Shown: positions 14,942 through 53,285 of the stretch, piece by piece
How positions within the stretch are numbered: position 1 is the first letter of the stretch
Layout: every line of letters starts with the position of its first letter
Source of the DNA: Mycobacteriales bacterium
Lineage (GTDB): Bacteria > Actinomycetota > Actinomycetes > JAFAQI01 > DASSKL01
Assembly: GCA_035690485.1 (NCBI GenBank)
Contig: DASSKL010000010.1
Location: forward strand, 856-64,855
DNA: 64,000 nt
Direction of reading: 5' to 3'
Position numbers and translations under genes: made by a program
The notes under the pieces: model-generated
What the model saw: only the letters and a program-made list of their open reading frames with translations
What the model was told of the DNA's origin: nothing
Databases searched by the model: none

Positions 14942-15010
14942 GCCTCAAGGCTAGCGGTGGGCTCGCCGCCCCGGCACACCCGCGACGGTTGCCCACCACG
15001 CCGAACACGT

Positions 15011-15048
15011 CGGAAAACTGCCAGGCGAGGCTAGGCAGTACCTCGCCT
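15011..15048 (-). terminator. Putative intrinsic terminator downstream of tRNA-Gln
   Basis: Inverted repeat aggcgagg / cctcgcct (15023-15030 and 15041-15048); on the minus strand it is followed by a UUUUCC run (reverse complement of gaaaac at 15013-15018); lies between the tRNA-Gln 3' end and the glmU start. Confidence 0.4.
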
Positions 15049-15081
15049 AAGAAGCAAACGGGGGATCAGCAGAATTGCAAT

Positions 15082-15156
15082 TGGCTGCGCCGTCTGGACT
15101 CGAACCAGAAAACCCGGAGTCAAAGTCCGGTGTGTTGCCAATTACACCACGGCGCA
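15082..15156 (-). tRNA. tRNA-Gln (anticodon UUG)
   Basis: 75-nt cloverleaf read off the reverse complement: 7-bp acceptor stem UGCGCCG/CGGCGCA, anticodon loop CUUUGAC, T-arm UCUGG-UUCGAGU-CCAGA, 3' GCCA. Confidence 0.9.
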
Positions 15157-15198
15157 ATCAACAATTCGTTGGCGATTCCGGTGAATGCTTCGCCAGTC

Positions 15199-15650
15199 TC
15201 AGTATATCGGCTGCGAACGCGACGGCGCCGTAAGGGCGGCAGCAACGCCGACCCACGCTCTCGTCCGTGGGTCATGACGCTTCAGGGAAGTCGCCGTGAA
15301 CGAGGTCAGAGGGTGCCCGACGACATCCGACCAGTAATGCATTGCGGCCTTGGCGTCGGCAGTCTCGTGAATCTGCAGTCGGAACCGCAAACGATCGGAT
15401 TCAACGCCCACCAGCAACAACCAACTGAGAAACGTGGTGACCATCGTCGGGTCGGAGTTGCAGAACGTCACGCGCTCGCGGCGCGAAGTAAGGCTTGTCC
15501 TTGGCTCCCTCCGCCCAGTAGAGCGCGACACCGATCAGGTAGAGCTCTCGTTCGGTCACCTTCCCGACGGATGCGCTGGCCCGAGCCTTCGTCACGAGGC
15601 GCTCGATGTTGCGGCGGCGACGAACAAGGGCCCGGCCCGGCGCAGCGCGC
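15199..15650 (-). pseudogene. Frameshifted, lower-GC hypothetical ORF remnant adjacent to tRNA-Gln (possible relic of a tRNA-targeting mobile element)
   Basis: Two overlapping minus-strand ORFs in different frames (15401..15898 and 15199..15531) that join into one reading ...ELYLIGVALYWAEGAKDKPYFAPR / RERVTFCNSDPTMVTTFLSWLLLVGVESDRLRFRLQIHETADAKAAMHYWSDVVGHP.... Local composition is visibly AT-richer than the flanks. No recognisable family. Confidence 0.3.
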
Positions 15651-27929: not shown

Positions 27930-29543
27930 GTGGCGACCGGGCTGGCAACGGGGGGCCCCGCGCCCGACGCGACCGCGGAGCTGCCTGCCGCCGACCAGCA
28001 CGCGCGGCTGGCCCGCATCCGCGCGCGGCTCGTGGTGCCGCTGCCGCGCGACGTGCTGTGGGGGTGGCTCGGCCCGCTGCTGGTGACCGGGCTGGCCGCC
28101 TACCTGCGCTTCCACCGGCTCGGCGTGCCGCAGGCGAAGGTCTTCGACGAGGTCTACTACAGCCACGACGCGTGGAGCCTGCTGCACCACGGCGTCGAGC
28201 TCAACGCGCACGACAACGGCCCCGGCTTCGTGGTGCACCCGCCGCTCGGCAAGTGGATGATCGCGTTCGGCGAGTGGGTGTTCGGCTACAACTCCTACGG
28301 CTGGCGGTTCTCCGCGGCGCTCGTCGGCACGCTGTCGGTGCTGATCCTCGCCCGTACGGCGCGGCGGATGTTCGGCTCGACGCTGCTCGGCTGCCTCGCC
28401 GGGCTGCTGCTGGCGCTGGAAGCGCTGGAGTTCGTGCAGAGCCGAGTCGCGATGCTCGACATCTTCCTGATGTTCTGGGTCGTCGCGGGGTTCGCCTGCC
28501 TCGTCATCGATCGTGACGACGGCCGGCGGCGCCTGGCCGAGCGTATGGAGGAGTGGCCGGCGTCGGCGCGGGGCCGCGGCCCGTGGCTCGGCGTGCGCTG
28601 GTGGCGGCTCGGTGTCGGGATCTGCGCGGGTGCCGCGTGCGCGACCAAGTGGAGCGGCGTCTGGTTCGTCATCGCGTTCTTCCTGCTGGCGTGGGCGTGG
28701 GACGCGGGCGCCCGCCGGGCGGCCGGCATCCGCCACCCGCGCCGGGCCGCGCTGCTGCTCGACGGCCTGCCCTCGATCGTCCTGCTGCTGCTCGTCCCGG
28801 CGATGGTCTACGTGCTGTCGTGGCTCGGCTGGTTCATGGCCACCGGCGCCACCGCCTGGGATCACGACAAGTTCGTGCACCCGGGGCAGGGCTGGTTCGC
28901 GCACGCCGTCGCGGTCGTGCACGGCTGGGTGAGCTACCACCGCGAGGTCTACAACTTCCACGTCCACCTCGACGCGGGCCACCCCTACAAGTCAGAGCCG
29001 TGGGGCTGGCTGCTGCTGGCCCGGCCGGTGGCGTACTTCTACTCCTCGCCGGACCTGGGCCAGCTCGGCTGCCATGCTCAGCAGTGCTCCCGCGAGGTGC
29101 TCGCGATCGGCACGCCGGCGATCTGGTGGGCGTCGATCCCGGCGCTGCTCTGGACGATCTGGGTGTGGGTCGCCCGGCGCGACTGGCGGGCGACCGCCGT
29201 GCTCTGGGGGTTCGGCGCGGGCTATGTCGTGTGGCTGGCCTTCCCCAGCCGCACGATGTTCCTCTTCTACGCGCTGCCCGCCGTGCCGTTCATGATCCTC
29301 GGGCTGACACTGGCGGCCGGCTCGTTGCTGGGCCGCGCACGAACGACGCTGCTGCGCAGACGGTGGGCCGCGGCGGCGGTCGGCGCCTTCGCCCTGCTGG
29401 TCGTGGCGAACTTCTTCTACCTGTATCCGATCCTCGCCGCGAAGGTCATCCCGCAGAGCGAGTGGCACGACCGCATGTGGTTCCGCCAGTGCACGAGCGC
29501 GAGCAGCGACCACACGGTCGAGGTCGCGCCCTGCTGGATCTAG
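27930..29543 (+). CDS. pmt: Protein O-mannosyltransferase (GT39, dolichyl-phosphate-mannose-protein mannosyltransferase family)
   Basis: GTG start at 27930; multiple TM helices; KVFDEVYYSHDAW...HPPLGKWMIAF motif region typical of PMT-family enzymes. Confidence 0.8.
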   Translation: MATGLATGGPAPDATAELPAADQHARLARIRARLVVPLPRDVLWGWLGPLLVTGLAAYLRFHRLGVPQAKVFDEVYYSHDAWSLLHHGVELNAHDNGPGFVVHPPLGKWMIAFGEWVFGYNSYGWRFSAALVGTLSVLILARTARRMFGSTLLGCLAGLLLALEALEFVQSRVAMLDIFLMFWVVAGFACLVIDRDDGRRRLAERMEEWPASARGRGPWLGVRWWRLGVGICAGAACATKWSGVWFVIAFFLLAWAWDAGARRAAGIRHPRRAALLLDGLPSIVLLLLVPAMVYVLSWLGWFMATGATAWDHDKFVHPGQGWFAHAVAVVHGWVSYHREVYNFHVHLDAGHPYKSEPWGWLLLARPVAYFYSSPDLGQLGCHAQQCSREVLAIGTPAIWWASIPALLWTIWVWVARRDWRATAVLWGFGAGYVVWLAFPSRTMFLFYALPAVPFMILGLTLAAGSLLGRARTTLLRRRWAAAAVGAFALLVVANFFYLYPILAAKVIPQSEWHDRMWFRQCTSASSDHTVEVAPCWI

Positions 29544-29952: not shown

Positions 29953-30090
29953 GGCTCCTCCTGCTCGTCGAAGCTGTCCGCAAGTAGACGACGAAGCGCG
30001 GCAGAAGTCATCGGGCTCGGGGTACGCCGGCAGAAGACTTACCTCTGCGCCACCCTGGACCTGGCACGGCCCGGCTCGGGTCAGAACCGA

Positions 30091-30123
30091 CGTGCGGGTG
30101 GTGGAGCTGAGGGGATTTGAACC
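30091..30123. repeat. att direct repeat (distal copy): 33-bp perfect duplicate of the tRNA-Ala 3' end plus 8 nt of 3' flank
   Basis: cgtgcgggtggtggagctgaggggatttgaacc is identical to 40112-40144. No D-arm or anticodon arm lies upstream, so this is a partial tRNA copy and not a gene. Confidence 0.85.
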
Positions 30124-30142
30124 ACTCGTCGCTCGCTTCCTA

Positions 30143-30168
30143 CCTGCGACTATACGCAAAGTCGCAGG
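30143..30168. other. 9-bp inverted repeat hairpin just inside the left att site
   Basis: cctgcgact-atacgcaa-agtcgcagg; could be an Int/Xis arm-type site or a terminator for the convergent cargo gene. Confidence 0.3.
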
Positions 30169-30307
30169 TCAGCGCGGTGGTCGTGAGCAGCCGGCGGTCG
30201 TTCGACGCCGTTGTACGCCGTGCCGTTATGCCCCGGGGCATAACGGATGATCTTGTTGCGGGGCGGCGAGACGTCCGATCGTCCGTGCGTTGATCAAGAG
30301 AACGGCA

Positions 30308-30883
30308 TCATTCAGAACCCGGCGCGTCGGGGGTCAAACCGAGCCGGTGCCCGGAGCCGCGCAGCCAGTCAATGACCCGCGCCCGAGCAACCCCGTGTCC
30401 GGCCGGCAGCAGCGCGGCGCGGTCCAACAGCGTGCCGAGATCGGCCAGGCGGGCCTCGAGAAGCGCATAGGCAAACGCGAAGTCCTTCTCCCGGTGTGCC
30501 GCGAGCTTCGCGACAATCAGGTCGTGTCGCTCCAGGCACAGCGCCGTCGCCGGCTCGGCCGCTCTGGCGTCGAACCGCACCAGTCGCTCCCGCCAGCCGA
30601 CGGGCAAGATCGCCGTGCTCACGTCGACGCCCTGGGCGTAGTAGGCGAACGTCTGGTGAAACGACGAGAGCTCGCCGATGGCGCCGTCGACGAGGTTGGC
30701 CTTCGCGGAGTCGTCGTCGTCGAAGAAGGCAAGATCCGCTTCGACCGACAGCCACGCGATCTCTGGCAGATCGTCCTCGCCGAAGGTGCCGAGGATCGCC
30801 TGTGAGCCGAGGACGAGGATGTCGGGGTCTCCGGCGACGCGAGCTGCCGCGCGGAGCACGTGCGCCAGCTCCTCGCGTCTCAC
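30308..30883 (-). CDS. Nucleotidyltransferase-fold protein, AbiEii-like putative toxin
   Basis: GTG start at 30883 with a GTGA overlap to the upstream HTH gene; hG[GS] motif (ILVLGSQAILG) followed by an acidic [DE]h[DE]h site (LSVEADLAFF) as in pol-beta-superfamily NTases; 192 aa. Confidence 0.5.
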   Translation of the reverse strand: MRREELAHVLRAAARVAGDPDILVLGSQAILGTFGEDDLPEIAWLSVEADLAFFDDDDSAKANLVDGAIGELSSFHQTFAYYAQGVDVSTAILPVGWRERLVRFDARAAEPATALCLERHDLIVAKLAAHREKDFAFAYALLEARLADLGTLLDRAALLPAGHGVARARVIDWLRGSGHRLGLTPDAPGSE

Positions 30884-31404
30884 CGCACCTTCGGCGAGTT
30901 CGCCGCCCCCAGCACCCGACGCCGTTCCTCCTCGGACAGCACCCCGGCGAAGGGGTTGTTCTGCCGCAGCTCGCGGGATCTGGGCGACGGTGAGGTCAAT
31001 GCGGTCAGCAGCTCGGTCAGCGGGCCTTCCAGCAGCCGCTCCCACTCCCGCATCCAGATTCGCGCGGCCCCACGCGAGGAGGACTCCCGCATCCGGCGCA
31101 GGTTCTCGCGAGCCAGCGCCCGTGCGCTGTCCGGATCTTCCGCTATCCGGCCGGCGATCGCATGCGCCAGCAGCAACGACCGCACCTGATCGCGAGTCAT
31201 CCGGCGTGCACCTGCGGCAACCACGTCGACGTCGCGCTGACGGACCCGACGGTGCTTACCCACCCATGAACACGGCAGGACGCCTTGGTCGCACAGGTCA
31301 ACGACGTGCTGGCGGGACACGCCCAACCGCGCCGCGGCCTCGCCAGTGCTCAACAACTCCTCGCCAGTGTCGGCGGCCAGGCGTTCGGCAACGGTCCCTC
31401 TCAC
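30880..31404 (-). CDS. HTH_17 (MerR/excisionase-type) DNA-binding protein with a C-terminal helical domain; AbiEi-like putative antitoxin/regulator
   Basis: GTG start at 31404; LSTGEAAARLGVSRQHVVDLCDQGVLPCSWVGKHRRVRQRDV helix-turn-helix; 4-nt overlap with the downstream NTase gene; C-terminal domain contains RSLLLAH (Rx5H). Confidence 0.5.
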   Translation of the reverse strand: MRGTVAERLAADTGEELLSTGEAAARLGVSRQHVVDLCDQGVLPCSWVGKHRRVRQRDVDVVAAGARRMTRDQVRSLLLAHAIAGRIAEDPDSARALARENLRRMRESSSRGAARIWMREWERLLEGPLTELLTALTSPSPRSRELRQNNPFAGVLSEEERRRVLGAANSPKVR

Positions 31405-31532
31405 GGCAACTACGCTAATGCCTAACCACCAAAAACACAATGATGGAGCGGCGATATTGGGTTTTGATCGGGTCGCAGGCACCATGCACGGGCGTCTGTC
31501 GAAGCCTGCGGCAGTAGCGGACGCGCACAAGG

Positions 31533-31991
31533 TCAGGACAGATCCAGATCCTGCTTCATCGCGGCCAGCTCATCCGCCGCCGAGAGGCGCAGCAGATCGT
31601 CCTCACGCTTGTGCCGCAGGAGGCTGTCCACGAGGACGCGCCGATGAGTCCCCACCATCCGATAGCCGATCTTGCCGTCGTTCAGCAAACCGATGAGGTA
31701 GGGGCGGGAGACGTTGAGCAGGTCGGCGGCCTGCTGGGTGGTCAGCTCGGCCGTCGATGGGACGACGGCGACCCCGTGACCGGCAGCCATGTGCGCGAGG
31801 ATCCGCACGAACACCCTGAGCGCTGCCGCGGGCACGAGCACCGTCTCCCCGTCGTCCTCCTCCACCCTCAGGTGGATCGACTCGGGCAGCCGCCGGTGTC
31901 GGGTGAGGTAGGACTGCAGCGCCGGTAGGGCCTCGGCAGCACGCGTGGCGTCGTCCTTGCTCGGCAAGATCGTGTCGAGCGCTGCGGTCAT
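31533..31991 (-). CDS. Hypothetical protein with a C-terminal HTH_17 DNA-binding domain (element regulator candidate)
   Basis: 152 aa; C-terminal LTTQQAADLLNVSRPYLIGLLNDGKIGYRMVGTHRRVLVDSL; the N-terminal roughly 80 aa has no recognisable family. Confidence 0.5.
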   Translation of the reverse strand: MTAALDTILPSKDDATRAAEALPALQSYLTRHRRLPESIHLRVEEDDGETVLVPAAALRVFVRILAHMAAGHGVAVVPSTAELTTQQAADLLNVSRPYLIGLLNDGKIGYRMVGTHRRVLVDSLLRHKREDDLLRLSAADELAAMKQDLDLS

Positions 31992-32440
31992 GACTCACCT
32001 CCTCCGCAGTCGCAGTATCCGCAACAAACGAAACAGACGCAATGACGCGTCCGCCGCGATCTTCAGGGGCCATCGGCACCCAAGCAGCCCCCGCGGCCAC
32101 CGTGCTCGAGGCCGCCAACCCGAACGGGAGTGGGTCCGGCGCTTCCCCCCGGGAGGCGAGACACCGGCCCCGTATCGGAGATACCGGGGTGTGTTCCGTC
32201 TGGTTTGTGTCCTGGGTCAGGTTCGTTGGGTCACATGTTCTTGGTGATCTCGTTCGCGTTCGGGATCTTGTTGTCGTGGGTGTTGGTGTCGTGTGAGCCC
32301 GTGATCGCATTCTGGAGATTGTGGTCACTGGCGACTCCTGTGCCGAGATTGGCTCCCTGCACTCCTTCCGCGTCGATTCCGCCAGGCGGAACACCAGCCC
32401 CACTCGGCTCGCTCGAGCTTCGATCAGTCCGCGGCCCGCG

Positions 32441-32488
32441 CGGGGACGCAGGCGGGGACGTCAGCGGGGACGCGGGCGGGGACGCGTG
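32441..32488. repeat. Four tandem 12-bp iteron-like repeats (CGGGGACGNNNG) upstream of the relaxase gene
   Basis: cggggacg recurs at 32441, 32453, 32465 and 32477 (exact 12-nt period); two more copies at 32695 and 32707; sits in an 850-bp non-coding region. Confidence 0.65.
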
Positions 32489-32498
32489 TCGGGTTGCC

Positions 32499-32606
32499 GG
32501 ACAAGGTGTTGGCCAAGGATCTGGACAAGGTCGTCACGCCTGACGAGCAGAATCCGGGGCGCTTTCGGCTTGCGGCCAAGGGTTCGGATAAGGATCTGGA
32601 CAAGGT
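32499..32606. repeat. Direct repeats AAGGATCTGGACAAGGT (x2) / GGACAAGGT (x3) inside the candidate oriT/regulatory region
   Basis: aaggatctggacaaggt at 32515-32531 and 32590-32606; ggacaaggt also at 32499-32507. Confidence 0.6.
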
Positions 32607-32694
32607 ACGGGCGCCAGAGTCCTCGCCGTGCAGACGGACCGGTGGCCTGATTTCAAGATCCCCCCACGCTCGAAACCGGCCCCGGGGGCGCCGG

Positions 32695-32718
32695 CGGGGA
32701 CGTCGGCGGGGACGCCCC
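32695..32718. repeat. Second cluster of two 12-bp CGGGGACGNNNG iterons about 130 bp before the relaxase start
   Basis: cggggacgtcgg cggggacgcccc at 32695-32718. Confidence 0.6.
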
Positions 32719-32845
32719 GAGCTTGCAATGCGCGCATGGATCTCGACCCCGGTGCGCCCACCCGCCGTCCCCGCCCGCCTGCCGCCCCCTCCCCGTCGAC
32801 CCGGGCTACCGCTGCGAGGGGTGGGCGGCGGTGATCTCGGTCGAG

Positions 32846-35701
32846 ATGCTGACCGGCGGACCCGGCGCGGGGGACTACTACCTGCGCCGGCAGGCGGACT
32901 GCGCGGCTGACTACTACGTCGGTCGGGGCGAGTCGGAGGGCGTGTGGGTAGGTGCCGGCGCCGAAGCGCTCGGCCTGACGGGTCCGCTGGGTCCAGGCGG
33001 CGAGCATGTGCTGCGAGCGATGCTCGCCGGCCGCGCTCCGGACGGCCAGGTGTTGGTGGCGGCGGTGCTTCGGGCGGTTCCGGCGTCCCGGCTGCCCGCC
33101 GGCCCACTCGTGGAGGCGGTCAGGGCGGTCGCGATCGGCCAGCAACTGACCCCGTCCGAAATCCTGCCGCGGACGCCGGATGCGCGGTACCGGGTGCTGG
33201 AACGGCGGATGGACGGGCCGCGTGGCGCGACGGCGACCGTGGGCGCGGAGGACGCCGAGCGGCTGTGTTCGGCGGCCGGCCTCGACCCGGTCGCGGTGTT
33301 CCGGGCGGCGGACGGCACGGACCGGTTCAGCCCGGCGCTCGCGGCGGCCGACGGCCGAGTGGACATTCGCCGCGCTGGGATCGACGTGACCATGTCCGCG
33401 CCCAAGTCGGTTTCCGTCCTCTACGGGCTCGGCTCGCCGGCGGTCGCCGGGCAGGCGCGGGCCGCCCACGACGCCGCGGTCGCCGAGGCACTGCGCTACC
33501 TGTCGCGGGAGGCGGGGCACGGGCTGCGCGGGCATCAAGGTGATGGGCGGCGGGCGGCGCGCATCGGCACCGACGGGCTGATCGCGGCGGGGTTCACCCA
33601 CCGGACGAGCCGCGCGGACGACCCGCAGTTGCACACCCACCTGGTCATCCCGAACGTCGTACGGGGTGAGGACGGCCAGTGGAGCGCGGTGGACTCCCGG
33701 GCGGTCTACCGGCACGCCACCACGGCCTCCTACCTGTACCAAGCAACGTTGCGGGCCGAGCTGACCCGCCGGCTCGGCGTCACGTGGACCGCCCCCAAGC
33801 GGGGCATCGCCGAGATCGTGGGGGTGCCGGCTGGGCTGCGCCGGCTCTTCTCGACCCGCAGCGTCCAGATCAGCACCGAACTGGCCCGAACCGGCCGGGA
33901 CGGCCCCGCTGCGGCGCAGGTCGCCTGCCTGGCCACCCGCCCCGCCAAGTCCCACACGCCGGAGGTCGCGCTACGGGAGCGCTGGCAGCTGCGCGCCGCC
34001 GAGGCTGGTCATCCGGGCGAGCAGCTGATCGACCAGACGGTCGGCCGGCAGATCGAGTTGCCGGCGTTGCCGACGTTCGCCGAGATGAGCGACAGGCTGG
34101 TCGCCCCGACCGGGCTGACCTCGATGCAGACCAGCGTGGACCGCCGCGATCTGCTGCAGGCCGTCTGCGAAGAACTGCCGCCCGGCGCACCGGTCTCCCT
34201 CGAGCTGGTCGACGCCTACGCCGACGCCACCCTCCGCTCCACGGAGTTGGTGCGGCTGGCAGGCGCCGCCGCGGTGGTTGAGGATGGGCCGCGCTGGTCC
34301 ACAGCTGAACTGCTGGCCACCGAAAAGCACGCCTTCACCGTCGCCGCCACGCTCCGTGCCGCCGCCCCCGCCCGCCCGATCCGCTCTATCGCTTTGCGCG
34401 GCCTCAATGGCGAACAGGCGGCGCTGGTCCGCGGATTGCTCGAGCATACAGGCGGACTGACGATCGTCGTCGGCCCGGCGGGCGCCGGTAAGACCGCCGC
34501 GCTGAAGACCGCCGTCGAGGCATGGTCCGCGGCCGGCGTACCCGTGCACGGCGCGACGGTCGCCGCGCTCACCGCCCGCGAACTATCCCGGGCCACCGGC
34601 ATGCCCACAACTACGTTGACCCGCCTGCTTGCTGACGCCGACCGGCCTACCGCCGACGGTCACCCTCCGGCAGGCCTGCCGGCCGGGTCGGTGCTGGTCG
34701 TCGACGAGGCCGGCATGGTCGACACCCGCACCCTCGTCCGGCTTCTCGACCACGCCGCGGCCAGCCGAGCGAAACTCGTGCTGGTCGGGGATCCGGCCCA
34801 GCTGCCGGAGATCGGCGCCGGCGGGCTGTTCACCGCGCTCACCCGCCATCCCGACACCATCCGGCTGCAGGGCAACCAGCGGCAGCACCGACTGTGGGAA
34901 CGGGTCGCGCTCGCCCAGCTGCGCACCGGTGACATTGCCGGGGCCCTGGATGCCTACGAGGCGCACGGGCGTATCCACACGGCCCCGACCGCGGTCGACG
35001 CGCAGGTCGAGATCGTCAGCGACTACCTCGCCCTCCGGGACCAGACAGTCCATCCCGACCGGGTGCTCATGCTCACGTCCACCCGCGCCGACACGTGCGA
35101 GCTCAACGAGCTGACCCGCGCCCGGCTGCGCGCCCACGGCCGGCTCGCCGGCCCCGCACTCACCGTCATGACCGCTGACGGGGACGTACGTGACTTCCAG
35201 GCCGGCGACGAGGTGGTGGTCATCCGCAACGACCACAGCCGGGGGCTGCTCAATGGCACCCGGGCCACCGTCACCGCCGTCGACCCCCACGCCCAGTGGC
35301 TCGCCTTGACCACCCGCGACGGCGCCGGGCACACCGTCGGCACCGACTGGCTACAGGAGGATCGACTCGCCCACGGTTACGCGCTCACCGTCCATAAGGC
35401 CCAAGGCTCCACCGTCGACCACGCCCTGCTCTACGGCACCGGCGCCCTCAGCCAGGAAGCCGGCTACGTCGCCCTGTCCCGTGGCCGCGAGAGCAACCAC
35501 CTCTACGCCGCGAACCCCGACCTCGACGAGCTGTACGCCGTCGAGCGGCAAGTACCGGACTGGCTCGCCGACCGGCTCGAACAGTCAGCCCGGCAAACGC
35601 TCGCCCTCGAGCAGTACCCGGACGGCGGATCTCATCCGGACGGGCTGTTCGACTGGCTGCGAGATGACGGGCGCGGCCACGACCTCGGGATCGGCCGATG
35701 A
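32846..35701 (+). CDS. traA: MobF-family conjugative relaxase fused to a RecD-like helicase (TraA/TrwC-like)
   Basis: N-terminus MLTGGPGAGDYYLRRQ...DYYVGRGESEGVWVGAGAEALGLTG; ...TMSAPKSVSVLYG...; HTHLVIPNV three-His motif; C-terminal VVGPAGAGKTAAL Walker A, VVDEAGMV and YALTVHKAQGSTVDH helicase motifs. An alternative GTG start lies at 32831. Confidence 0.85.
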   Translation: MLTGGPGAGDYYLRRQADCAADYYVGRGESEGVWVGAGAEALGLTGPLGPGGEHVLRAMLAGRAPDGQVLVAAVLRAVPASRLPAGPLVEAVRAVAIGQQLTPSEILPRTPDARYRVLERRMDGPRGATATVGAEDAERLCSAAGLDPVAVFRAADGTDRFSPALAAADGRVDIRRAGIDVTMSAPKSVSVLYGLGSPAVAGQARAAHDAAVAEALRYLSREAGHGLRGHQGDGRRAARIGTDGLIAAGFTHRTSRADDPQLHTHLVIPNVVRGEDGQWSAVDSRAVYRHATTASYLYQATLRAELTRRLGVTWTAPKRGIAEIVGVPAGLRRLFSTRSVQISTELARTGRDGPAAAQVACLATRPAKSHTPEVALRERWQLRAAEAGHPGEQLIDQTVGRQIELPALPTFAEMSDRLVAPTGLTSMQTSVDRRDLLQAVCEELPPGAPVSLELVDAYADATLRSTELVRLAGAAAVVEDGPRWSTAELLATEKHAFTVAATLRAAAPARPIRSIALRGLNGEQAALVRGLLEHTGGLTIVVGPAGAGKTAALKTAVEAWSAAGVPVHGATVAALTARELSRATGMPTTTLTRLLADADRPTADGHPPAGLPAGSVLVVDEAGMVDTRTLVRLLDHAAASRAKLVLVGDPAQLPEIGAGGLFTALTRHPDTIRLQGNQRQHRLWERVALAQLRTGDIAGALDAYEAHGRIHTAPTAVDAQVEIVSDYLALRDQTVHPDRVLMLTSTRADTCELNELTRARLRAHGRLAGPALTVMTADGDVRDFQAGDEVVVIRNDHSRGLLNGTRATVTAVDPHAQWLALTTRDGAGHTVGTDWLQEDRLAHGYALTVHKAQGSTVDHALLYGTGALSQEAGYVALSRGRESNHLYAANPDLDELYAVERQVPDWLADRLEQSARQTLALEQYPDGGSHPDGLFDWLRDDGRGHDLGIGR

Positions 35702-35919
35702 GGCTGCTGACCATCCCCGAAGCGGCCACGGAGCTGCACGTCCCCGAAGGCTGGCTGCGCAAGAAGGTCACCGCTCGCGAAGTGCCCTTCACCCGCCTGG
35801 GCAAGCACGTCCGCTTCACCGACGACCAACTACGCGCCATCGTCATAGCCGGCGAGGTACTACCGATTGTCGTACCCGCCAGGCAAGGCCTCAGCCGGCG
35901 CGCCAGGAAGCTCGCATAA
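35698..35919 (+). CDS. xis: Excisionase/Xis-like HTH_17 DNA-binding protein
   Basis: 73 aa; LTIPEAATELHVPEGWLRKKVTAREVPFTRLGKHVRFTDDQL; ATGA overlap with the relaxase stop. Confidence 0.7.
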   Translation: MRLLTIPEAATELHVPEGWLRKKVTAREVPFTRLGKHVRFTDDQLRAIVIAGEVLPIVVPARQGLSRRARKLA

Positions 35920-35974
35920 CATGCTCGGCCAGTTTGCAGGACCCTGTCGGTTCCTTGAGGGTGCACTCGGAATT

Positions 35975-36008
35975 GGATCCGGACACCACTGTTGCGGTGT
36001 CCGGATCC
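35975..36008. terminator. Bidirectional hairpin terminator between convergent xis and the secreted-protein gene
   Basis: Perfect 13-bp inverted repeat ggatccggacacc-actgttgc-ggtgtccggatcc, 56 nt after the xis stop and 46 nt after the stop of the minus-strand gene. Confidence 0.45.
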
Positions 36009-36053
36009 AATGGCCGGATTGCTACGCCCTACCAGTTGGGTGAGTGTGCACTC

Positions 36054-36902
36054 TCAGATGCTGGCGCACGCATCGCCGCGGTCGTAGTACGGCGACGGCG
36101 TTTCCCACCAGGTCGCGTCCCACACGGTCGAGTAGTTGACTGGGCCGTAGACGACAACGACTTGTTGCCCGTACGTCACGTTCGTGTCAGACGAGTTCGC
36201 GCCTCCGGTTCCTGGGTGACAGGACGTTGCGCTGATTCCTTCGTTGGACACGGACACATGGCCCTGGTCGACCCAAGATCCCAAGTACGTGTAGGTGCCC
36301 TTGATGTAGTTGGATCCGCCGACCAAAGTCGTACCCACGCATATGGTGCCGCTGGACGTAGTGGCAGCACAGGCTGAGCCGACAGGAACAGACGCCGGGG
36401 AAACCTGTGTCGGCGACTGCGTCTCGGACGGGGATGGGCTAGCACTTGCTTGATCCGCAGACGGGCTAGCACTCTCTTGCGGCCCAGACGCGGAAGAGTT
36501 GGAATTCGCTTGCGCCCCCGAGGGCACTGGCACCGACTTCGGATCGCAACTGATCACACCGGCGACGGCCAAGGTCGTTATGTCCGCAGGCATGCCCTTG
36601 ATCCCGCTGGCGCCGCTAACGGGGATGTACTCGAGGTTCTCAAGGTGGCAACCGGAGGGAGCAAGCTCGTCCCATTTCGCGCTTCGCATGCTTGCTTGCT
36701 GGTCGGCTGCCCAGGCTTCCCACGCGCTTCTCGGCGCTGCTGCCGACGGCGCGGCCGGAAGTGGGTTTGCGTCCACGCTGGAAACAGGTTGCCCCGTTGG
36801 CGTCGGAGGCGAACCATCTGCAGCCGCGGGTGCAATGTCTGCGCCTCCCACGAAACCCAACGCGACGGCGAACGTGACTACGAACGACTTGCGACGAGCC
36901 AC
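36054..36902 (-). CDS. Secreted Cys-containing protein of unknown function (two domains joined by a Ser/Pro/Gln-rich linker)
   Basis: GTG start with AAGGGGG RBS; signal peptide VARRKSFVVTFAVALGFVGGADIAPAAA; low-complexity linker SGPQESASPSADQASASPSPSETQSP; C-terminal domain with about 5 Cys; lower-GC codon usage. Confidence 0.5.
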   Translation of the reverse strand: MARRKSFVVTFAVALGFVGGADIAPAAADGSPPTPTGQPVSSVDANPLPAAPSAAAPRSAWEAWAADQQASMRSAKWDELAPSGCHLENLEYIPVSGASGIKGMPADITTLAVAGVISCDPKSVPVPSGAQANSNSSASGPQESASPSADQASASPSPSETQSPTQVSPASVPVGSACAATTSSGTICVGTTLVGGSNYIKGTYTYLGSWVDQGHVSVSNEGISATSCHPGTGGANSSDTNVTYGQQVVVVYGPVNYSTVWDATWWETPSPYYDRGDACASI

Positions 36903-36943
36903 TGCAACCACCCCCTTCTTGTCAACAATTGGACTTAGGTGTC

Positions 36944-38062
36944 TCAACTCGATGGACGAGTCTCTGGCGCGTTCAGCGTGATCGGGCCTGGCAGCGCGGC
37001 AACGGCGATGCTGTCGTCGAGTCCCCATTCCAGTCGGGCACTTCCCTGGCCGGCGGGGACCTCGATTTGCATCGCGAATGTGGCGCTGTCCCCGGCCTTA
37101 ATGCCGTTTGTCTCGTCGCAGTTGAGGCGGTACTGGCCGACGGTGGCGTCAGTTGGCTGGTCGTAGCCGGCACCCATGTATTGGGTGTAGATCGGACAGC
37201 GGTTGAAGATCACGTCCCGATCGGACGGATTGTGGAGGGTAACCGTGTAAGTGACCGTGTCTCCGCTGGTAGCCGCGCGGGGAGCGCTGATCGTGATCAC
37301 CAAGCCGTTCAACTCCGAGGTGGCCGCCGCGGGCGTGGTGAACGCGCTGTACGTGAAGGCCGTATGCCGAAAACCGTTGCACGGAGTGTCGGTCGCAGCG
37401 GGGAAGGCGATTGTCACCTCGCCGCCCCCCGGGGCCGGCACCCGGAAGGCTGTCGCGGTGGCATTGGATTCGCCAGAAGGCATTGGGGGCAACGTGTCGC
37501 ACTCGTCTGAGTAGCTGAACACGATCGCCGCACGCTCCCCAGGCTTTAGGTTTGCCGGCGGGGCGGTGTGCACATGAGGGTCAGCCGTCACGGTCGTCCC
37601 GCTGACCCGACCACCGCCGGTCAGTTCCACGCTTATGTCAGAGGCATAGCCGGACAGCGTGCAGGGCTGGCTGCCACGATTGGTGAACCAGAGCAGAAGG
37701 CGATGATCGTGAACACCAAGGCCCGCGTCGACTGGTTCGGCGCGACCTTGCATTTCCGCGGCGCCGCAGGCTGGATACTCGGCCGAGTTGTCGACTTCTA
37801 CGGGCTGGTTGACCCATGGCGCCGGCTGCGCGCTTCCCATACGGATCGGGACCGGCTCAGTAGAGTGCCCGGCGAGGCTGTAGGTAGAGAGGACGGCGAC
37901 GACGGCGGTCGTCGTGGCCGTCGCCGTTAGAACCGCGACAGCGCGGCGAGAGCGGCGTCGGCGGTCGATACGCCGGTGCAGTTCTTCCAGAAATTCCCCC
38001 TGTACCGCAACGACGGGAACGTCTTCGAAGGCACGAACTAGCTCACGTTCTGCATCGTTCAT
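36944..38062 (-). CDS. Anti-sigma factor with extracytoplasmic DUF4232-like domain
   Basis: ATGA overlap with the sigma gene; N-terminal cytoplasmic segment MNDAERELVRAFEDVPVV..., a single TM (AVAVLTATATTTAVVAVLS), and an ectodomain with HRLLLWFTNRGSQPCTLSGY typical of DUF4232. Confidence 0.55.
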   Translation of the reverse strand: MNDAERELVRAFEDVPVVAVQGEFLEELHRRIDRRRRSRRAVAVLTATATTTAVVAVLSTYSLAGHSTEPVPIRMGSAQPAPWVNQPVEVDNSAEYPACGAAEMQGRAEPVDAGLGVHDHRLLLWFTNRGSQPCTLSGYASDISVELTGGGRVSGTTVTADPHVHTAPPANLKPGERAAIVFSYSDECDTLPPMPSGESNATATAFRVPAPGGGEVTIAFPAATDTPCNGFRHTAFTYSAFTTPAAATSELNGLVITISAPRAATSGDTVTYTVTLHNPSDRDVIFNRCPIYTQYMGAGYDQPTDATVGQYRLNCDETNGIKAGDSATFAMQIEVPAGQGSARLEWGLDDSIAVAALPGPITLNAPETRPSS

Positions 38063-38556
38063 TTCGGTTGCTCCGCTTCCCGCAATGGCGAGCCGAGCCG
38101 TTCTCTTAGCGTGCGCAAGGCCTTGGCCGACTGGCTCTTCACGGTGCCGACGCTGCATCCCAAGGCCGCTGCGGCCTGTTGTTCGGAGTAGTCAGCCACA
38201 TAACGCAGCGCCAACACCGCTCGCTGACGCGGAGGCAAAGCGGCGAGCGCGTCCCACACCTCGAAACTCCGGCCGACCGGCTCATAGAATTGCTCCGGAA
38301 CTACGGCGACCAGGCGTTCCAAGCGGCGACGTCGCCACCAACTGATCCTCTGGTTCACCATGACCTGACGGACGTACCTGGCCGGGTCCCCGCTTGCGAG
38401 CACACGAGACCACCGGGTCCCGACCTGCAACAGCGCTTCCTGCACCAAGTCGTCGGCATGCGCGGAGTTGGCGGTCAGCGCATATGCGAAGCGAGAGAGT
38501 TCCGGCATACGGACACGCACGAACGCGTCGAACGACGCTCGTTCGTCGGCGTCCAC
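38059..38556 (-). CDS. ECF (sigma-70 family group IV) RNA polymerase sigma factor
   Basis: 165 aa; region 2 (ADDLVQEALLQVGTRWSRV...YVRQVMVNQRISWWRR) and region 4 HTH (QRAVLALRYVADYSEQQAAAALGCSVGTVKSQSAKALRTLR). Confidence 0.8.
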   Translation of the reverse strand: MDADERASFDAFVRVRMPELSRFAYALTANSAHADDLVQEALLQVGTRWSRVLASGDPARYVRQVMVNQRISWWRRRRLERLVAVVPEQFYEPVGRSFEVWDALAALPPRQRAVLALRYVADYSEQQAAAALGCSVGTVKSQSAKALRTLRERLGSPLREAEQPK

Positions 38557-38760
38557 GCTTCACCACCTTCCGCCAGTAGCACGCACGAGGAGGTGGAAAG
38601 GTTGCCCGGGCCGACCAGCAGATTGGGCGACAGGGTTGCCGGACCAGGCAAACGTTCCTGAAAGCGACCTCCGTAGTCAGGTGTACGGCCCCCGACTCCG
38701 GGCCGAATCGCCATTGTCAGTCAGACCGGGCATGCTGCGCCCGAACGAGGAATGGCACCC

Positions 38761-40020
38761 CTATGCCGGCTTCTCCTCAAGCACGAGCACCGCCGCCTCG
38801 ACGCTGTCCCCTCCGGTTGCGGTGACCACCTTGCGACCGCCGAGTGCCCGGTCGATGGCGAGGTCGGCTATCTCGTGGGTCTGGAAGAGCAGCCCACCGT
38901 AGACGTCGACGGTGATCTGGATGCTCTTGTGGCCGAGCCGCTTCTGGATCACCGGCAGGGGGACGCCAGCCGAGATCAGCCAGGCGGCGTGCGTGTGCCG
39001 CAGGTCGTGGAACCGCGGCGTCTTCGCCAGTCCTTTGGCCTGCGCGGCCTTGATCGCGCGCTGCCATCCGCCGTACCAGTTGCCGTGCACCCGCCGGCCG
39101 CCGCCGCGGGCGCTGAACACCAGATCGTCCGGGCCTCGACCGGCCACGACGCGGCGCAACGCCTCGACGACGCGCGGGGCCAGGGTGATGCGCCGCCGGG
39201 ACTCGCGCGTCTTCGGCTTGCCGATGTAGGCGACGCCGTGCTGCCCGAGCGCGAACTCGCCCCGGCCGTTGCTCTTCCAAGCCCGGCGGATCGTCAGCAT
39301 CGCCGGTGAGCCGTCGATGTTGAGGTCCTTGACCTTGAGCGCGGTGAGCTCGCCCCAGCGCAGCCCCGTGCCCACGGCGACAGTCAGGAAGTCGCGGTCA
39401 ACCTCGGGCATGCACGAGCGCAGGAGCGCGAACTCCTTCTCGGTGAGGAAGACCTTGTCCTCGTCGTCCTCAGTGTCGTCGTCGGTCGGCGGCAGTTTCA
39501 CCCCTTCGCAGGGGTTGCGGCCGATCAGGCCCTTCTCCACCGCGCTCTTGAGCACGGCCGCCAGCAGGCCGTGGTAGTTGGCGATCGTCTTCGGGCTGGC
39601 GCCGGCCTTGCGCCGGGCGACGATCCAGTCGCGGTCGTCGTCCGACGTCAGGTTCTCGATCGTCGGCTGGCACCGCTTGATCTCGGTGAGCCAGCCGTCG
39701 AGCGACGTCAGCTGCTGGACGTACTTCGTCTGCGTGTCCGGCCCGGCGCTGGTGAGCCGGCGGACGTACGCCGTGCCGAACTCGAGTAACGGGCGCTCCT
39801 CCGCCGGCTCCTCCCACGCCTCACCGAAACCCATGCCCTTGACCCAGCCGTCCGGCCACCGCTGACCGGCGGCGTCGACGAGCGCCGCGAACTTCAGCGC
39901 CGCCCGGCGGTCGGCGAACGTCTCGGACTGCCATGGTGCGCCGCGGCTGCCACCGAGCAGCCACTGCACCTTGTAGGTGCGCTCGCCGGACTTGTGCTTG
40001 CGCGTGACGACGCTCGCCAT
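38761..40020 (-). CDS. int: Tyrosine-type site-specific recombinase / phage integrase
   Basis: ATG 40020 with GGAGG 6 nt upstream; N-terminal MASVVTRKHKSGERTYKVQW AP2-like domain; catalytic region with R...HDLRHTHAAWLISAGVPLPVIQKRLGHKSIQITVDVYGGLL (R, HxxR, Y). Lies directly 3' of tRNA-Ala. Confidence 0.9.
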   Translation of the reverse strand: MASVVTRKHKSGERTYKVQWLLGGSRGAPWQSETFADRRAALKFAALVDAAGQRWPDGWVKGMGFGEAWEEPAEERPLLEFGTAYVRRLTSAGPDTQTKYVQQLTSLDGWLTEIKRCQPTIENLTSDDDRDWIVARRKAGASPKTIANYHGLLAAVLKSAVEKGLIGRNPCEGVKLPPTDDDTEDDEDKVFLTEKEFALLRSCMPEVDRDFLTVAVGTGLRWGELTALKVKDLNIDGSPAMLTIRRAWKSNGRGEFALGQHGVAYIGKPKTRESRRRITLAPRVVEALRRVVAGRGPDDLVFSARGGGRRVHGNWYGGWQRAIKAAQAKGLAKTPRFHDLRHTHAAWLISAGVPLPVIQKRLGHKSIQITVDVYGGLLFQTHEIADLAIDRALGGRKVVTATGGDSVEAAVLVLEEKPA

Positions 40021-40111
40021 GACCGCCTCCAAGATCAACCGTTATGCCTCGGTTATGCCTCGGGAGCGACCGTAGAGCGGCCCTGCGACAGTTTTCGCAG
40101 GTCAGAGCCTT

Positions 40112-40144
40112 CGTGCGGGTGGTGGAGCTGAGGGGATTTGAACC
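40112..40144. repeat. att direct repeat (tRNA-proximal copy) overlapping the 3' 25 nt of tRNA-Ala
   Basis: Identical 33-mer to 30091-30123. Confidence 0.85.
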
Positions 40145-40196
40145 CCTGACCCCCTCGATGCGAACGAGGTGCGCTACCGGACTGCGCCACAGCCCC
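40120..40196 (-). tRNA. tRNA-Ala (anticodon CGC)
   Basis: 77-nt cloverleaf GGGGCUGUGGCGCAGUCCGGUAGCGCACCUCGUUCGCAUCGAGGGGGUCAGGGGUUCAAAUCCCCUCAGCUCCACCA; G3:U70 Ala identity pair; anticodon loop UUCGCAU; encoded CCA. Confidence 0.9.
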
Positions 40197-47217: not shown

Positions 47218-47814
47218 GTGCCCGCCACCCCGCCAACCGCCATAAGTGTGGTGAAGTCACGCCTGCGGGCGCAGCTGCTGGCGCGGCGGGCGAGCAGGTC
47301 GCCGGCGGAGCGTCGCGCCGCCGCCGCCGGGCTGGCGCGCCACCTCGACGCCCTGCCGGAGATCGGTGCCGCGCGCTGCGTGACGGCGTACGTCGGAGTG
47401 GACGACGAGCCCGGCACCGGGCCACTGCTCGACGAAGCGGCGGCGCGCGGCCTGGAGGTCTTGCTGCCGGTGGCCCTCCGGGGCGGGCGCCTGGCCTGGG
47501 CGGCGTACACGGGAACGGCCGACCTCGTGGCGGGACGGTTCGGCCTGCGCGAACCGGCCGGCCCGCGGCTCGGGCCGGAAGCCGTCGCCGAGGCCGACCT
47601 GTTGCTGGTGCCGGCGCTGGCCGTCGACCGCGCCGGGCACCGGCTGGGCCGGGGCGGCGGACACTACGACCGGTTGCTGGCGAGCCTGGCGCAGCCGGCG
47701 TACGCGGTGGTCTTCGACGACGAGGTGCTCGACGCCGTGCCCGTGGACGCCCACGACCGGTCGGTCACCGGCGCCCTCACCCCGTCAGGCTTCGTGCGGC
47801 TAGTGAAGAGCTGA
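47218..47814 (+). CDS. 5-formyltetrahydrofolate cyclo-ligase
   Basis: KSRLRAQLLARRAS...GLREPAG...RLGRGGGHYDRLL motifs; start ambiguous (GTG at 47218, 47248 or 47251). Confidence 0.75.
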   Translation: MPATPPTAISVVKSRLRAQLLARRASRSPAERRAAAAGLARHLDALPEIGAARCVTAYVGVDDEPGTGPLLDEAAARGLEVLLPVALRGGRLAWAAYTGTADLVAGRFGLREPAGPRLGPEAVAEADLLLVPALAVDRAGHRLGRGGGHYDRLLASLAQPAYAVVFDDEVLDAVPVDAHDRSVTGALTPSGFVRLVKS

Positions 47815-49056
47815 CCCAGCGAGCCAGTCGGCCCAGGACATGTTCCAGTCGGCGGTGCCGGCGTCCCAGCGCACCGGCAGGCGGGGGGTGTTGAAGATGT
47901 CGATGATGTCGCCGCGCTGGGAGAAGTTGTAGAACCACTCCGCGTCGGACGGCGCGAGGTTGACGCAGCCGTGGGACACGTTGGTGTTGCCCTGGTCCGC
48001 CACCGACCACGGGGCGGAGTGGACGAACGCGCCGCCGTTGGAGATGCGGACGTCCCACTTGACCGTCTCGTAGTAGCCGTCGGGCGAGTTGCGTGGGATG
48101 CCCACCGTCGCGGAGTCCATGATCACCGTGGGCGCCTTGTCGAGCGCGATGTGGACGCCGCCCATCGTGGGCCACTTGTCCTCGCGGCCCGCGCTGATCT
48201 TGAACGTCTTGACCAGCTTGCCGTTGGCGAAGACCTGCATCGAGTGGTTCTTGACGTCGACCTTGCTGACGTGGGAGTCGCCGATGCGGTAGGTCGCGGT
48301 GTGCGCGTCGCGCTCGCCCCAGACCCCGTCACCGAGGTAGAGGTGCGCGAGGTTGACGCCGAAGGTCACGGTCGTGCCGGGCGCCCAGTAGTTCTGGGGC
48401 CGCCAGTGGATCTCGGTGCCGCTGATCCAGTGCCACGAGCCCTCGACGCTGGGGCTGGTGCTGATCGTCAGCCGCCGCTCGACGTCGGCCTTCTCGCTGT
48501 CGGGCACGGTGCGGTTGAAGGTGACGATCGCGGGCTGGCCGATGCCGACCACGGCGCTCATCGCCGGGTTGAGCACCGGCCGCAGGTGCTTCTCGGAGTC
48601 GGCGACCAGCACCTTGAGGTCGTCGGTGTGGCTCTTGCCGCGCAGGTCCTGGTAGGCGACGTGGACCGTGTAGGTCTCGAGCGGCTCCAGCGTGTTGCTG
48701 CTGCGCCACTCCGACCCGTCGGCCGTTGCGTGACCCGGCAGCGCCTGGCCGCCAGGCCCGGTGACCGAGGTCGAGGTGATCGCGGCGTGCTCGGCGACCA
48801 GCCGTAGCGGCTGGTCCCACGGCACCTGCCCCTGCGCGTTCTGCAGCGCGACGACCAGCTTGGCGGGGGGCGGCGGCAACGGTGACAGCTCGGCGGTGCC
48901 CTGTGCCGCGGTGACGCTCCCGGGCTGAGAGCCGGTGCCCAGCGTCTCGTAGGCCGCGACCCCGCCACCGGCGACGGCAAGGACGGCGACCGCAGAGGTG
49001 AGGGCGGTACGCAGACGCACGGGGCTGCTCCGGTCGACTCGGTGGGGCAGGCACAT
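47800..49056 (-). CDS. L,D-transpeptidase (YkuD domain) with N-terminal Ig-like domains
   Basis: 418 aa; catalytic HGCVNLAPSDAEWFYNF with His/Cys; N-terminal signal or lipoprotein-like segment. Confidence 0.8.
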   Translation of the reverse strand: MCLPHRVDRSSPVRLRTALTSAVAVLAVAGGGVAAYETLGTGSQPGSVTAAQGTAELSPLPPPPAKLVVALQNAQGQVPWDQPLRLVAEHAAITSTSVTGPGGQALPGHATADGSEWRSSNTLEPLETYTVHVAYQDLRGKSHTDDLKVLVADSEKHLRPVLNPAMSAVVGIGQPAIVTFNRTVPDSEKADVERRLTISTSPSVEGSWHWISGTEIHWRPQNYWAPGTTVTFGVNLAHLYLGDGVWGERDAHTATYRIGDSHVSKVDVKNHSMQVFANGKLVKTFKISAGREDKWPTMGGVHIALDKAPTVIMDSATVGIPRNSPDGYYETVKWDVRISNGGAFVHSAPWSVADQGNTNVSHGCVNLAPSDAEWFYNFSQRGDIIDIFNTPRLPVRWDAGTADWNMSWADWLAGSALH

Positions 49057-49188
49057 GATGCCCGGCGGGGGTGCCGGTCATACGACTAGACGCATGAGGT
49101 GCCAACAAGGTTGCCCGACCGGTGCATTCCGCAGCATCCGCCGCTCCGGTGATCGGTGCGGGCGGAAGGGACTACCTCGCCCGCCGCG

Positions 49189-53067: not shown

Positions 53068-53129
53068 GTGCACGCCTCCACGGTGCCACGTGCGGCGGGC
53101 CGGCGACCCGCCTTTGACAACGACCTGCC

Positions 53130-53285
53130 GTCGTGGTCCGCTGTAGCCGCAGTCGTCACGGACAGGGGAAGCCGGTCGAAATCCGGCGCTGACCCGCAAC
53201 CGTAGGCCTCCGGGTGGACTCCCGGGAGCGAGCCGGAACACCTGGCGGTGACGAGGGCTCCCTGACATCCGTCGAGGTTCGCGGG
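53130..53285 (+). promoter_or_regulatory. Putative cobalamin (adenosylcobalamin) riboswitch
   Basis: acAGGGGAAGCCGGTCGAAATCCGGCGCTGACCCGCAACCGTAGG matches the conserved AdoCbl riboswitch core (AGGGAA..CCGGTGAAAATCCGG..GCTGCCCCCGCAACTGTAAG); a downstream GAGCCGGAACACCTGGCGG is a degenerate B12-box-like element; about 120 nt upstream of the first gene of the cluster. Confidence 0.55.

Follow-up and report, generated by a model that had tools for sequence, protein, structure and literature searches.

The question raised by this locus is whether an extracytoplasmic function (ECF) sigma factor, a membrane protein encoded directly behind it and a secreted protein of unfamiliar type form one regulatory unit, and whether that unit came to its host on mobile DNA. 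The genes occupy positions 36054-38556 of a 64-kb stretch of DNA from an uncultured soil Mycobacteriales bacterium (the whole of which we refer to as the window), as three open reading frames (ORFs), all on the minus strand, that run in the order ECF sigma factor, membrane protein, secreted protein (Table 1). Our best explanation, in which we place reasonable rather than high confidence, is that they constitute a sigma/anti-sigma/secreted protein operon, carried as foreign cargo on an integrative mobilizable element (IME) seated at a tRNA-Ala(CGC) gene, and that they would work by the mechanism we propose further on.

That the three genes are cargo on a mobile element can be observed directly. 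They lie within a unit of 10,021 bp bounded by 48-nt direct repeats (30079-30126 and 40100-40147) that are 92% identical, and two contigs (L027 and L032), found via the flanking glyoxalase gene, carry the exact empty site. The flanks of these contigs are 99.8-99.97% identical to the window (i.e. the same species), and in both the GlpR-like gene and tRNA-Ala are joined straight to the glyoxalase gene, with a single copy of the attachment (att) repeat and the junction falling within its 33-nt core; the element integrates precisely, and is present or absent as a polymorphism within one species. An earlier reading of this DNA (the original prediction) had called the genes mobile-element cargo, and this stands: the sigma/anti-sigma pair is absent from the same locus in the element-less genomes. 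The identical element sits at the same site on long contigs from several samples, and 160 sample blocks of the collection have a record of the exact sigma protein. Searching the secreted and membrane proteins against 72,556 plasmids with tblastn gave no match.

The unit combines a site-specific recombinase, a relaxase and flanking direct repeats; none of its ORFs encodes a mating pore or an FtsK-like translocase (the rest being helix-turn-helix (HTH) proteins and a weak DUF6036 match), and it is therefore an integrative mobilizable element and not a self-transmissible one. In its tRNA 3'-end target, direct repeats, integrase beside the tRNA gene, excisionase (Xis) and single MOBF-type (TrwC) relaxase, as well as in its small size (10 kb) and its present/absent polymorphism, it is like other IMEs of tRNA genes; where it departs from the usual ones is in its cargo, a likely signalling operon instead of resistance or metabolic genes.

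Several contigs record the ends of the element, or variation within it. Three from the Logan collection (L006, L008 and L009) start or stop inside the att repeats, with L006 (10,051 bp) covering window positions 40141..30091; no circular (attP) junction was seen on the 10-kb Logan contigs, and ends of this kind fit branching of the assembly graph at the repeat just as well as excision to a circle, and may reflect a mixture of occupied and empty alleles. In L004, 24 single-nucleotide polymorphisms (SNPs) are bunched in 430 bp of the relaxase gene (window 34117-34543), the remaining element being nearly identical, and L031 is a variant of the element, 98.7% identical, with a relaxase of 956 aa; these patterns suggest recombination among element variants.

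The first gene of the module encodes a member of the SigE family of ECF sigma factors, of which S. coelicolor sigma-E is the familiar example: it scores 164.9 bits against NCBIfam TIGR02983 (cut-off 141.55), its Pfam content (Sigma70 r2, r4 and r4_2) comprises regions 2 and 4 only, and records of metagenome-assembled genomes at NCBI name the exact protein ‘SigE family ... Mycobacteriales bacterium’. Identity to other database sequences is only 40-60%, the nearest others reaching 59-60%. The two nearest relatives with retrievable context come from metagenomic Mycobacteriales contigs (L114, 59% identical; L116, 58%), and each has a DUF4232 partner gene overlapping its own by 4 nt. In a wider set of 80 more distant homologs (40-57% identical, from species-representative genomes), a downstream ORF on the same strand is found beside 72, overlapping the sigma stop codon by 4 nt in 47 of the 72. 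The two near relatives also differ from the locus described here, as no integrase or relaxase gene is seen on their short contigs and no secreted protein gene follows the pair in L116 (the L114 contig stops in the partner gene). No other ECF sigma factor is encoded in the window.

The sigma gene also appears to carry a promoter of its own class. Of 79 sigma homologs, 59 have the pattern AAC-N16-18-CGT in their upstream DNA, with 69 hits against 9.7 +/- 3.4 in shuffles, and the hits bunch 35-65 nt before the start codon. We trained a position weight matrix (PWM) on 44 of these homolog sites (-35 aGGCAACCtt, -10 GCGTC) and scanned the whole window with it, alongside 10 shuffles whose maxima were 14-20 bits. 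The second-best site in the window (21.7 bits, above all 10 shuffle maxima) lies just ahead of the sigma gene in the form GGGCAACC-N15-GCGTG, and L114 and L116 have the same motif, including the TGCGTG -10 element. An AAC at -35 and CGTC or CGTG at -10 is what the SigE family places before its own genes, and S. coelicolor sigma-E recognises AAC/TC promoters (PMC6767563). Comparison with homologs shows, then, a predicted promoter of a conserved type before the sigma gene, and a membrane protein gene that in the nearest relatives is coupled to, and co-inherited with, that of the sigma factor. The original prediction had pointed to two places for such a motif, upstream of 38556 and of 36902, and only the former yields a candidate; before the secreted protein gene (36902) nothing reaches 14 bits with the PWM.

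Three sequences of similar appearance were set aside. A regular-expression match to GAAC-N19-CGA at -72 of 36902 was rejected as an ECF site, being below the PWM threshold; matches to the raw pattern GCAAC-N16-18-CGT are no more frequent in the window than chance would give (5, with 8.7 expected), and the PWM was used instead; and the region upstream of a secreted-family gene on another contig (L013), which has a similar look (GGGCAACC...TCGAC), scores under 12 bits and was not used as evidence.

The best PWM match in the window lies outside the element, 34 nt ahead of an L,D-transpeptidase gene of the host (49056..47800, minus strand; Big_10 and YkuD domains), and is nearly identical to the site before the sigma gene, the two having GGGCAACCTT...TGCGT in common. 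The sigma-E regulon of S. coelicolor likewise includes L,D-transpeptidases as conserved members, and many sigma-E promoters are also read by additional ECF sigma factors (PMC6767563). It is plausible, as a conjecture, that the sigma factor of the element cross-activates this host promoter. That an incoming element might rewire the surface or envelope expression of its recipient, as the original prediction proposed, is suggested by one thing, namely this match.

The second gene overlaps the first by ATGA, its ATG at 38062 lying over the TGA of the sigma gene, and the product has the plan that was originally predicted, with a single transmembrane (TM) segment and a DUF4232 ectodomain: a cytoplasmic N-terminus of ~38 aa, the TM segment at residues 41-59, DUF4232 (PF14016) at 99-230 with 42.1-42.6 bits (gathering cut-off 27), and a second, beta-rich domain at ~245-372 holding two more Cys. 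The Pfam and NCBIfam matches on these two minus-strand ORFs likewise confirm the sigma/DUF4232-protein pair. A word-index homolog search with the membrane protein returned self-hits only, and a single-sequence AlphaFold2 (AF2) model of it was discarded (predicted local distance difference test score, pLDDT, of 46). The partner protein of L116 can be aligned with it from end to end (31% identity, E = 1e-22), with the same succession of N-terminus, TM segment, DUF4232 and second domain. Beyond these relatives, we aligned the 69 downstream ORFs of at least 150 aa among the 72 beside sigma homologs: all begin with the pattern MxxxExxLR...RxRRRR and then a TM segment, an N-terminus that the window protein also carries, and none has DUF4232. 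BNR/beta-propellers are the commonest identifiable ectodomains and esterases also occur, most ectodomains being without a match. A shared N-terminus joined to varied ectodomains is the signature of a conserved, presumptive sigma-binding stub fused to interchangeable sensors.

The third gene encodes a protein with a signal peptide (RRK, a hydrophobic stretch, then a boundary between AAA and DG), a small N-terminal domain, a linker of ~55 residues rich in S/P/Q, whose coding DNA contains a 27-nt tandem repeat, and a C-terminal domain. The signal peptide and linker had both been anticipated from the ORF running from GTG 36902 to 36054; the Cys-count had been misjudged, and in place of a five-Cys C-terminal domain there are six Cys in all, two in the N-terminal domain (C85, C119) and four in the C-terminal (C178, C188, C228, C279). 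Neither a lipobox nor a sortase motif is present, and because of this the protein is probably soluble and extracellular. An AF2 model (mean pLDDT 80, above 90 in both domains; predicted template modelling score 0.70) gives a predicted fold of helix-plus-hairpin for the N-terminal domain and a beta-sandwich for the C-terminal one. Foldseek searches of this model against the PDB and BFVD gave no match at E<1e-3, with only generic sandwich folds at E>=5e-3, and sequence searches of the PDB returned nothing relevant and no relative of the protein.

A word-index search with the secreted protein found only a truncated copy of itself, and an exhaustive HMMER search recovered 67 cluster representatives at E<=1e-3 (22 at E<=1e-10), most of them 230-290 aa long and matching in both domains. 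The description of the protein as belonging to no recognisable family is therefore right as regards the curated libraries, in that the profile search of it against Pfam and NCBIfam matched no family (and a Pfam scan of 48 members gave 0 matches), and wrong in so far as a small, uncharacterised family exists. In an alignment of those 48 members (A1), W61, G276 and C279 are invariant and W64, P105, C228 and W266 nearly so; the window protein has the family's signal peptide, N-terminal domain with W61/W64 and two Cys, C-terminal domain with four Cys, and G-x-x-C end. The RGD tripeptide remarked on in the original prediction is present (residues 275-277) and is due to chance, G alone being conserved in the alignment. 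Ten members that we looked up occur in metagenome collections only (JGI, ENA, Logan), with no name beyond ‘hypothetical protein’, and an alignment-based search for related loci found nothing in GTDB species representatives and, in JGI metagenomes, only a copy of the present locus disrupted by an insertion sequence (IS).

Family members recur in varied company. In the element described here the gene lies with the sigma/anti-sigma pair and a TrwC relaxase; in L013 it is divergent from another ECF sigma gene (31% identical) that has a TM partner; and on three further contigs (L018-20) the member P0130 sits beside a TrwC-like relaxase (33% identical), so that the family is associated with mobile DNA a second time. 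A transposase gene is adjacent in L014, and the neighbourhoods in L015, L021 and L117 look ordinary. The contigs that carry P0130 (L018, L019 and L020) also encode an NYN-domain protein, a PP-binding carrier protein and an AMP-binding enzyme, and L020 has an ISL3 transposase.

As to how the third gene is connected with the other two, it was thought to be convergent with the sigma pair, and this is wrong: it is co-directional, a gap of 41 bp separates it from the anti-sigma gene upstream, and the only genes with which it is convergent are those of xis and the relaxase. A scan for consensus terminators found none between the three genes. A strong hairpin follows the third (RNA fold of 35950-36056 on the minus strand, -56.8 kcal/mol, z = -7.9; no T-run), where a 16-nt inverted repeat at 35972-36011 is nested in an outer repeat (GAGAGTGCAC/GTGCACCCTC); this is probably a bidirectional terminator, with an oriT-like relaxase site or a recombinase site as the alternative. 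With no promoter recognised before the secreted protein gene and no terminator separating it from its neighbours, it is likely that the three genes form an autoregulated operon, which is the simplest reading of the layout.

Composition supports the foreign origin that was originally proposed. The G+C content at third codon positions (GC3) is 0.747 in the sigma gene, 0.735 in the anti-sigma gene and 0.700 in the secreted protein gene (i.e. 0.70-0.75), as against 0.88-0.93 in the element backbone (relaxase 0.881, integrase 0.931) and 0.90-0.96 in neighbouring host genes; the module is compositionally distinct from host and backbone alike, which supports its being recently acquired cargo. The converse, that the low-GC patch is native to the element and reflects the amino-acid composition of its genes or weak selection on them, we regard as very improbable: the low-complexity linker, rich in S/P/Q/A, could distort composition locally, but it is at third codon positions that all three genes fall short (0.88-0.96 elsewhere), the sigma gene deviates as well though of ordinary composition, homologous sigma/DUF4232 genes in other lineages (including those of L114 and L116) have a higher GC3 of 0.81-0.94, and the near-invariance of the module across samples (2 SNP positions in 2.5 kb) argues against decay. 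The same common deficit, in suggesting joint arrival, bears on another alternative, that the secreted protein gene is an unrelated passenger behind the sigma pair, owing its expression to a separate promoter or to constitutive read-through, with no functional tie to the sigma system. The principal uncertainties, indeed, are whether this gene is an output or a passenger, whether the partner protein inhibits the sigma factor and whether the sigma factor reaches host promoters, and a number of points weigh against the reading we prefer. For the passenger view, an ECF sigma gene adjoins a secreted-family gene in only 2 of the 7 contexts, such that linkage is occasional and the family is usually (5 of 7) without a sigma gene nearby; none of the 80 loci of sigma homologs has a family member within 5 kb; L116, with one of the two sigma/DUF4232 pairs closest to this one, has none (L114, whose contig ends inside the partner gene, is uninformative); and some members of the population tolerate an IS630-like insertion in the gene, which is on this evidence dispensable. 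Co-transcription and sigma dependence of the gene, moreover, are read from layout, and a TTGACA hexamer lies within the 41-bp gap. On the other hand, the hexamer is so close to the start codon (~20 nt) that a -10 element and a leader could not both be fitted in between; the three genes share a strand, the gap is short and no terminator intervenes; and a second family member, that of L013, abuts an ECF sigma/TM-protein pair, the 2 in 7 being well above the 1-2% at which, on our own base-rate estimate, a gene would be expected to adjoin an ECF gene. Taken together, we consider it unlikely that the gene is a passenger.

Two of the points that tell against our reading concern the partner: there is no curated anti-sigma domain in the membrane protein (neither Pfam zf-HC2 nor RskA, with an NCBIfam hit that is sub-threshold only), and its cytoplasmic part, at ~38 aa, is well short of a class I anti-sigma domain (~80 residues). 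With no classical domain detected, the label ‘anti-sigma’ is one that we infer from architecture, and the protein might instead act as a positive co-factor or be one of the co-expressed targets, the sigma factor being controlled transcriptionally, as S. coelicolor SigE is by CseBC. The short cytoplasmic part would suit such an arrangement, and there is precedent in ECF39 (the group of S. coelicolor SigE), in which the sigma gene is under the direct transcriptional control of a two-component system, subgroups 1-3 having a system of this kind but no anti-sigma factor; the clade formed by ECF222, ECF51, ECF38 and ECF39 does, for its part, have anti-sigma types in common (PMC7826278). We think this alternative decidedly unlikely. 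The partner gene lies directly downstream of the sigma gene, is translationally coupled to it and strictly co-inherited with it (L114, L116), and its product is a single-pass membrane protein; the N-terminal segment is kept while the ectodomains differ (BNR propellers, esterases, DUF4232), as would be expected of a sigma-binding module with swappable sensors; four partners of the sigma homologs weakly match the NCBIfam ‘anti-sigma factor’ model NF052375; and the element contains no two-component system. There remains the host promoter, which presumably has its own resident sigma factor; as the window encodes no other ECF sigma, that factor would be encoded elsewhere in the genome.

We therefore return to the sigma/anti-sigma/secreted protein operon, and suggest the following model for its action, which would follow the established ECF paradigm of sequestration, envelope cue, release, then transcription and secretion. 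In the resting state the short cytoplasmic N-terminus of the membrane protein would sequester the sigma factor, until an extracytoplasmic cue acting on the ectodomain (DUF4232 plus the beta-sandwich) sets it free, such that it can transcribe its own operon from the candidate promoter. The secreted protein, a soluble, disulfide-bonded, probably glycosylated protein of two domains, would then be the built-in output of the system, a role proposed because its gene lies 41 bp downstream with neither a promoter of its own nor a preceding terminator. Host promoters of this class, for example that of the L,D-transpeptidase gene (49116..49086), may respond to the freed sigma factor as well, in which case the element would reach into host cell-wall remodelling. 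We speculate further, whilst giving the idea little weight, that the secreted family is a recurrent accessory of mobile DNA, as hinted at by the IME here, the TrwC-like relaxase in L018-20 and the transposases in L014 and L020, that a sigma factor borne on the element would switch on the secreted protein in response to an envelope cue, and that this sigma factor, having its promoter specificity in common with the cell-wall regulon of the host, would make of the element a mobile, self-contained envelope-response module. Were this so, the element would sense when to act and remodel the surface, e.g. by masking a phage or conjugation receptor or by altering peptidoglycan through the L,D-transpeptidase.

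Comparable arrangements are known. In cnrYXH, on plasmid pMOL28 of Cupriavidus metallidurans, an ECF sigma factor and membrane-bound regulator (the CnrY/CnrX pair) are carried on mobile DNA with the genes that they control, those of a metal-efflux pump; the putative output here is instead a secreted protein, and the predicted sensor has a DUF4232 ectodomain. In Streptomyces, the ECF sigma factor BldN, which has an N-terminal pro-sequence, is held by RsbN, a single-pass membrane anti-sigma factor without a classical domain, and controls the secreted chaplins and rodlins. The likeness of the present pair to BldN/RsbN is one of architecture and does not come from sequence comparison, and a pro-sequence is absent from the window sigma factor. 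From S. coelicolor sigma-E the system differs in having a membrane partner in place of the CseABC two-component system, and in its mobile setting. Each component is thus of a known kind, and what is new is limited to the unnamed secreted family, DUF4232 as the ectodomain of a sigma partner, and the mobile setting; current understanding is not overturned, and the locus is a fairly ordinary example of a regulator as mobile cargo. It is nonetheless a clean natural case in which what travels on a small mobilizable element is a regulatory module and not a gene for resistance or metabolism, with occupied, empty and IS-disrupted alleles coexisting in one soil population. It flags a metagenome-only family of secreted proteins, predicted to be disulfide-bonded, assigns to DUF4232 a concrete candidate function, that of sensor ectodomain in a protein partnered with a sigma factor, and, because the host L,D-transpeptidase promoter is almost identical to that of the sigma gene, offers a case in which a sigma factor gained by horizontal transfer might come to use host promoters of its own class.

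Table 1. Features of the element and its surroundings (window coordinates).
Feature	Position	Strand	Basis and remarks
Distal att repeat, left end of element	30079..30126		48-nt direct repeat; L027 and L032 join exactly here; 33-nt identical core GGTTCAAATCCCCTCAGCTCCACCACCCGCACG
183-aa protein, weak DUF6036 nucleotidyltransferase match	30308..30859	-	Pfam E=4.4e-4, 20.5 bits, under cut-off of 23.6
HTH_17 DNA-binding protein, start codon uncertain	30880..31530	-	Pfam HTH_17 4.6e-11; weak AbiEi_4 0.0016
HTH_17 protein, 152 aa	31533..31991	-	Pfam HTH_17 1.4e-9
TrwC-type relaxase/helicase, 951 aa	32846..35701	+	Pfam TrwC 2e-73, AAA_30 2.7e-51
Xis-like (excisionase) HTH_17 protein, 73 aa	35698..35919	+	Pfam HTH_17 1e-6
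Perfect 16-nt inverted repeat, ~18 bp when folded	35972..36011		Between convergent xis and operon
Secreted two-domain protein, 282 aa	36054..36902	-	GTG start; ribosome-binding site AAGAAGGGGG
Putative anti-sigma, 372 aa	36944..38062	-	ATGA overlap with sigma; hydropathy; Pfam DUF4232
ECF sigma, SigE family, 165 aa	38059..38556	-	GTG start 38556; TIGR02983, Pfam
Candidate autoregulatory ECF promoter	38577..38607	-	GGGCAACCTTTCCACCTCCTCGTGCGTGCTA; AAC 38603-38601, CGT 38583-38581, 24 nt before GTG start
Tyrosine integrase, 419 aa	38761..40020	-	Pfam Phage_integrase 4.4e-24
tRNA-Ala(CGC)	40120-40196	-	ARAGORN, Rfam; proximal att repeat 40100-40147 spans its 3' half
Host promoter of same ECF class (predicted)	49086..49116	-	GGGCAACCTTGTTGGCACCTCATGCGTCTAG; best PWM match in window, 24.2 bits; outside element

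The insertion that disrupts the secreted protein gene is an IS630-like element of 1.19 kb with a DDE_3 transposase, perfect terminal inverted repeats (GTGGTCCGTCG...CGACGGACCAC) and a TA duplication at CTAG. It lies in the linker-coding region (window 36439-36472), and is found in L003 (12119-13304), in L017 (1379-2826) and behind the truncated protein P0001; the insertions in L003 and L017 seem to lie at different, neighbouring CTAG sites of the 27-nt tandem repeat, unless the assembly of L003 is wrong at this point. A gene for a protein O-mannosyltransferase (PMT) lies close to the attachment site (27933-29543, plus strand), with only the small glyoxalase gene intervening, and in actinobacteria a linker rich in Ser/Thr/Pro, such as the secreted protein has, would typically be a substrate of PMT; this may be coincidence.

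On the compositional claims of the original prediction, the description of the interval as the most AT-rich part of the window holds at scales of 1 kb and 2.5 kb, at which the GC minima (0.62-0.64) fall at ~35.7-38.4 kb, and fails at 500 nt, the lowest value (0.59) lying at 14950-15600 around tRNA-Gln (15082-15156), a stretch that may be another integration hotspot or plain intergenic sequence. Relatives of the secreted protein are all on contigs of 56-68% GC. No repeats flanking the three-gene module, such as might mark its entry into the element, were found, and PADLOC matched none of the three module proteins to a defence system.

At the left end of the element, the two minus-strand genes within 30308-31530 are possibly an AbiE-like toxin-antitoxin maintenance pair, in which the 183-aa protein with the DUF6036 match would be a possible toxin; external gene calls for the HTH gene beside it (30880..31530) differ, at 106, 174 or 201 aa. 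Well outside the element, on the plus strand, the window also holds a cobalamin riboswitch (53121-53263; Rfam RF00174, 35.5 bits, gathering score 31.5).

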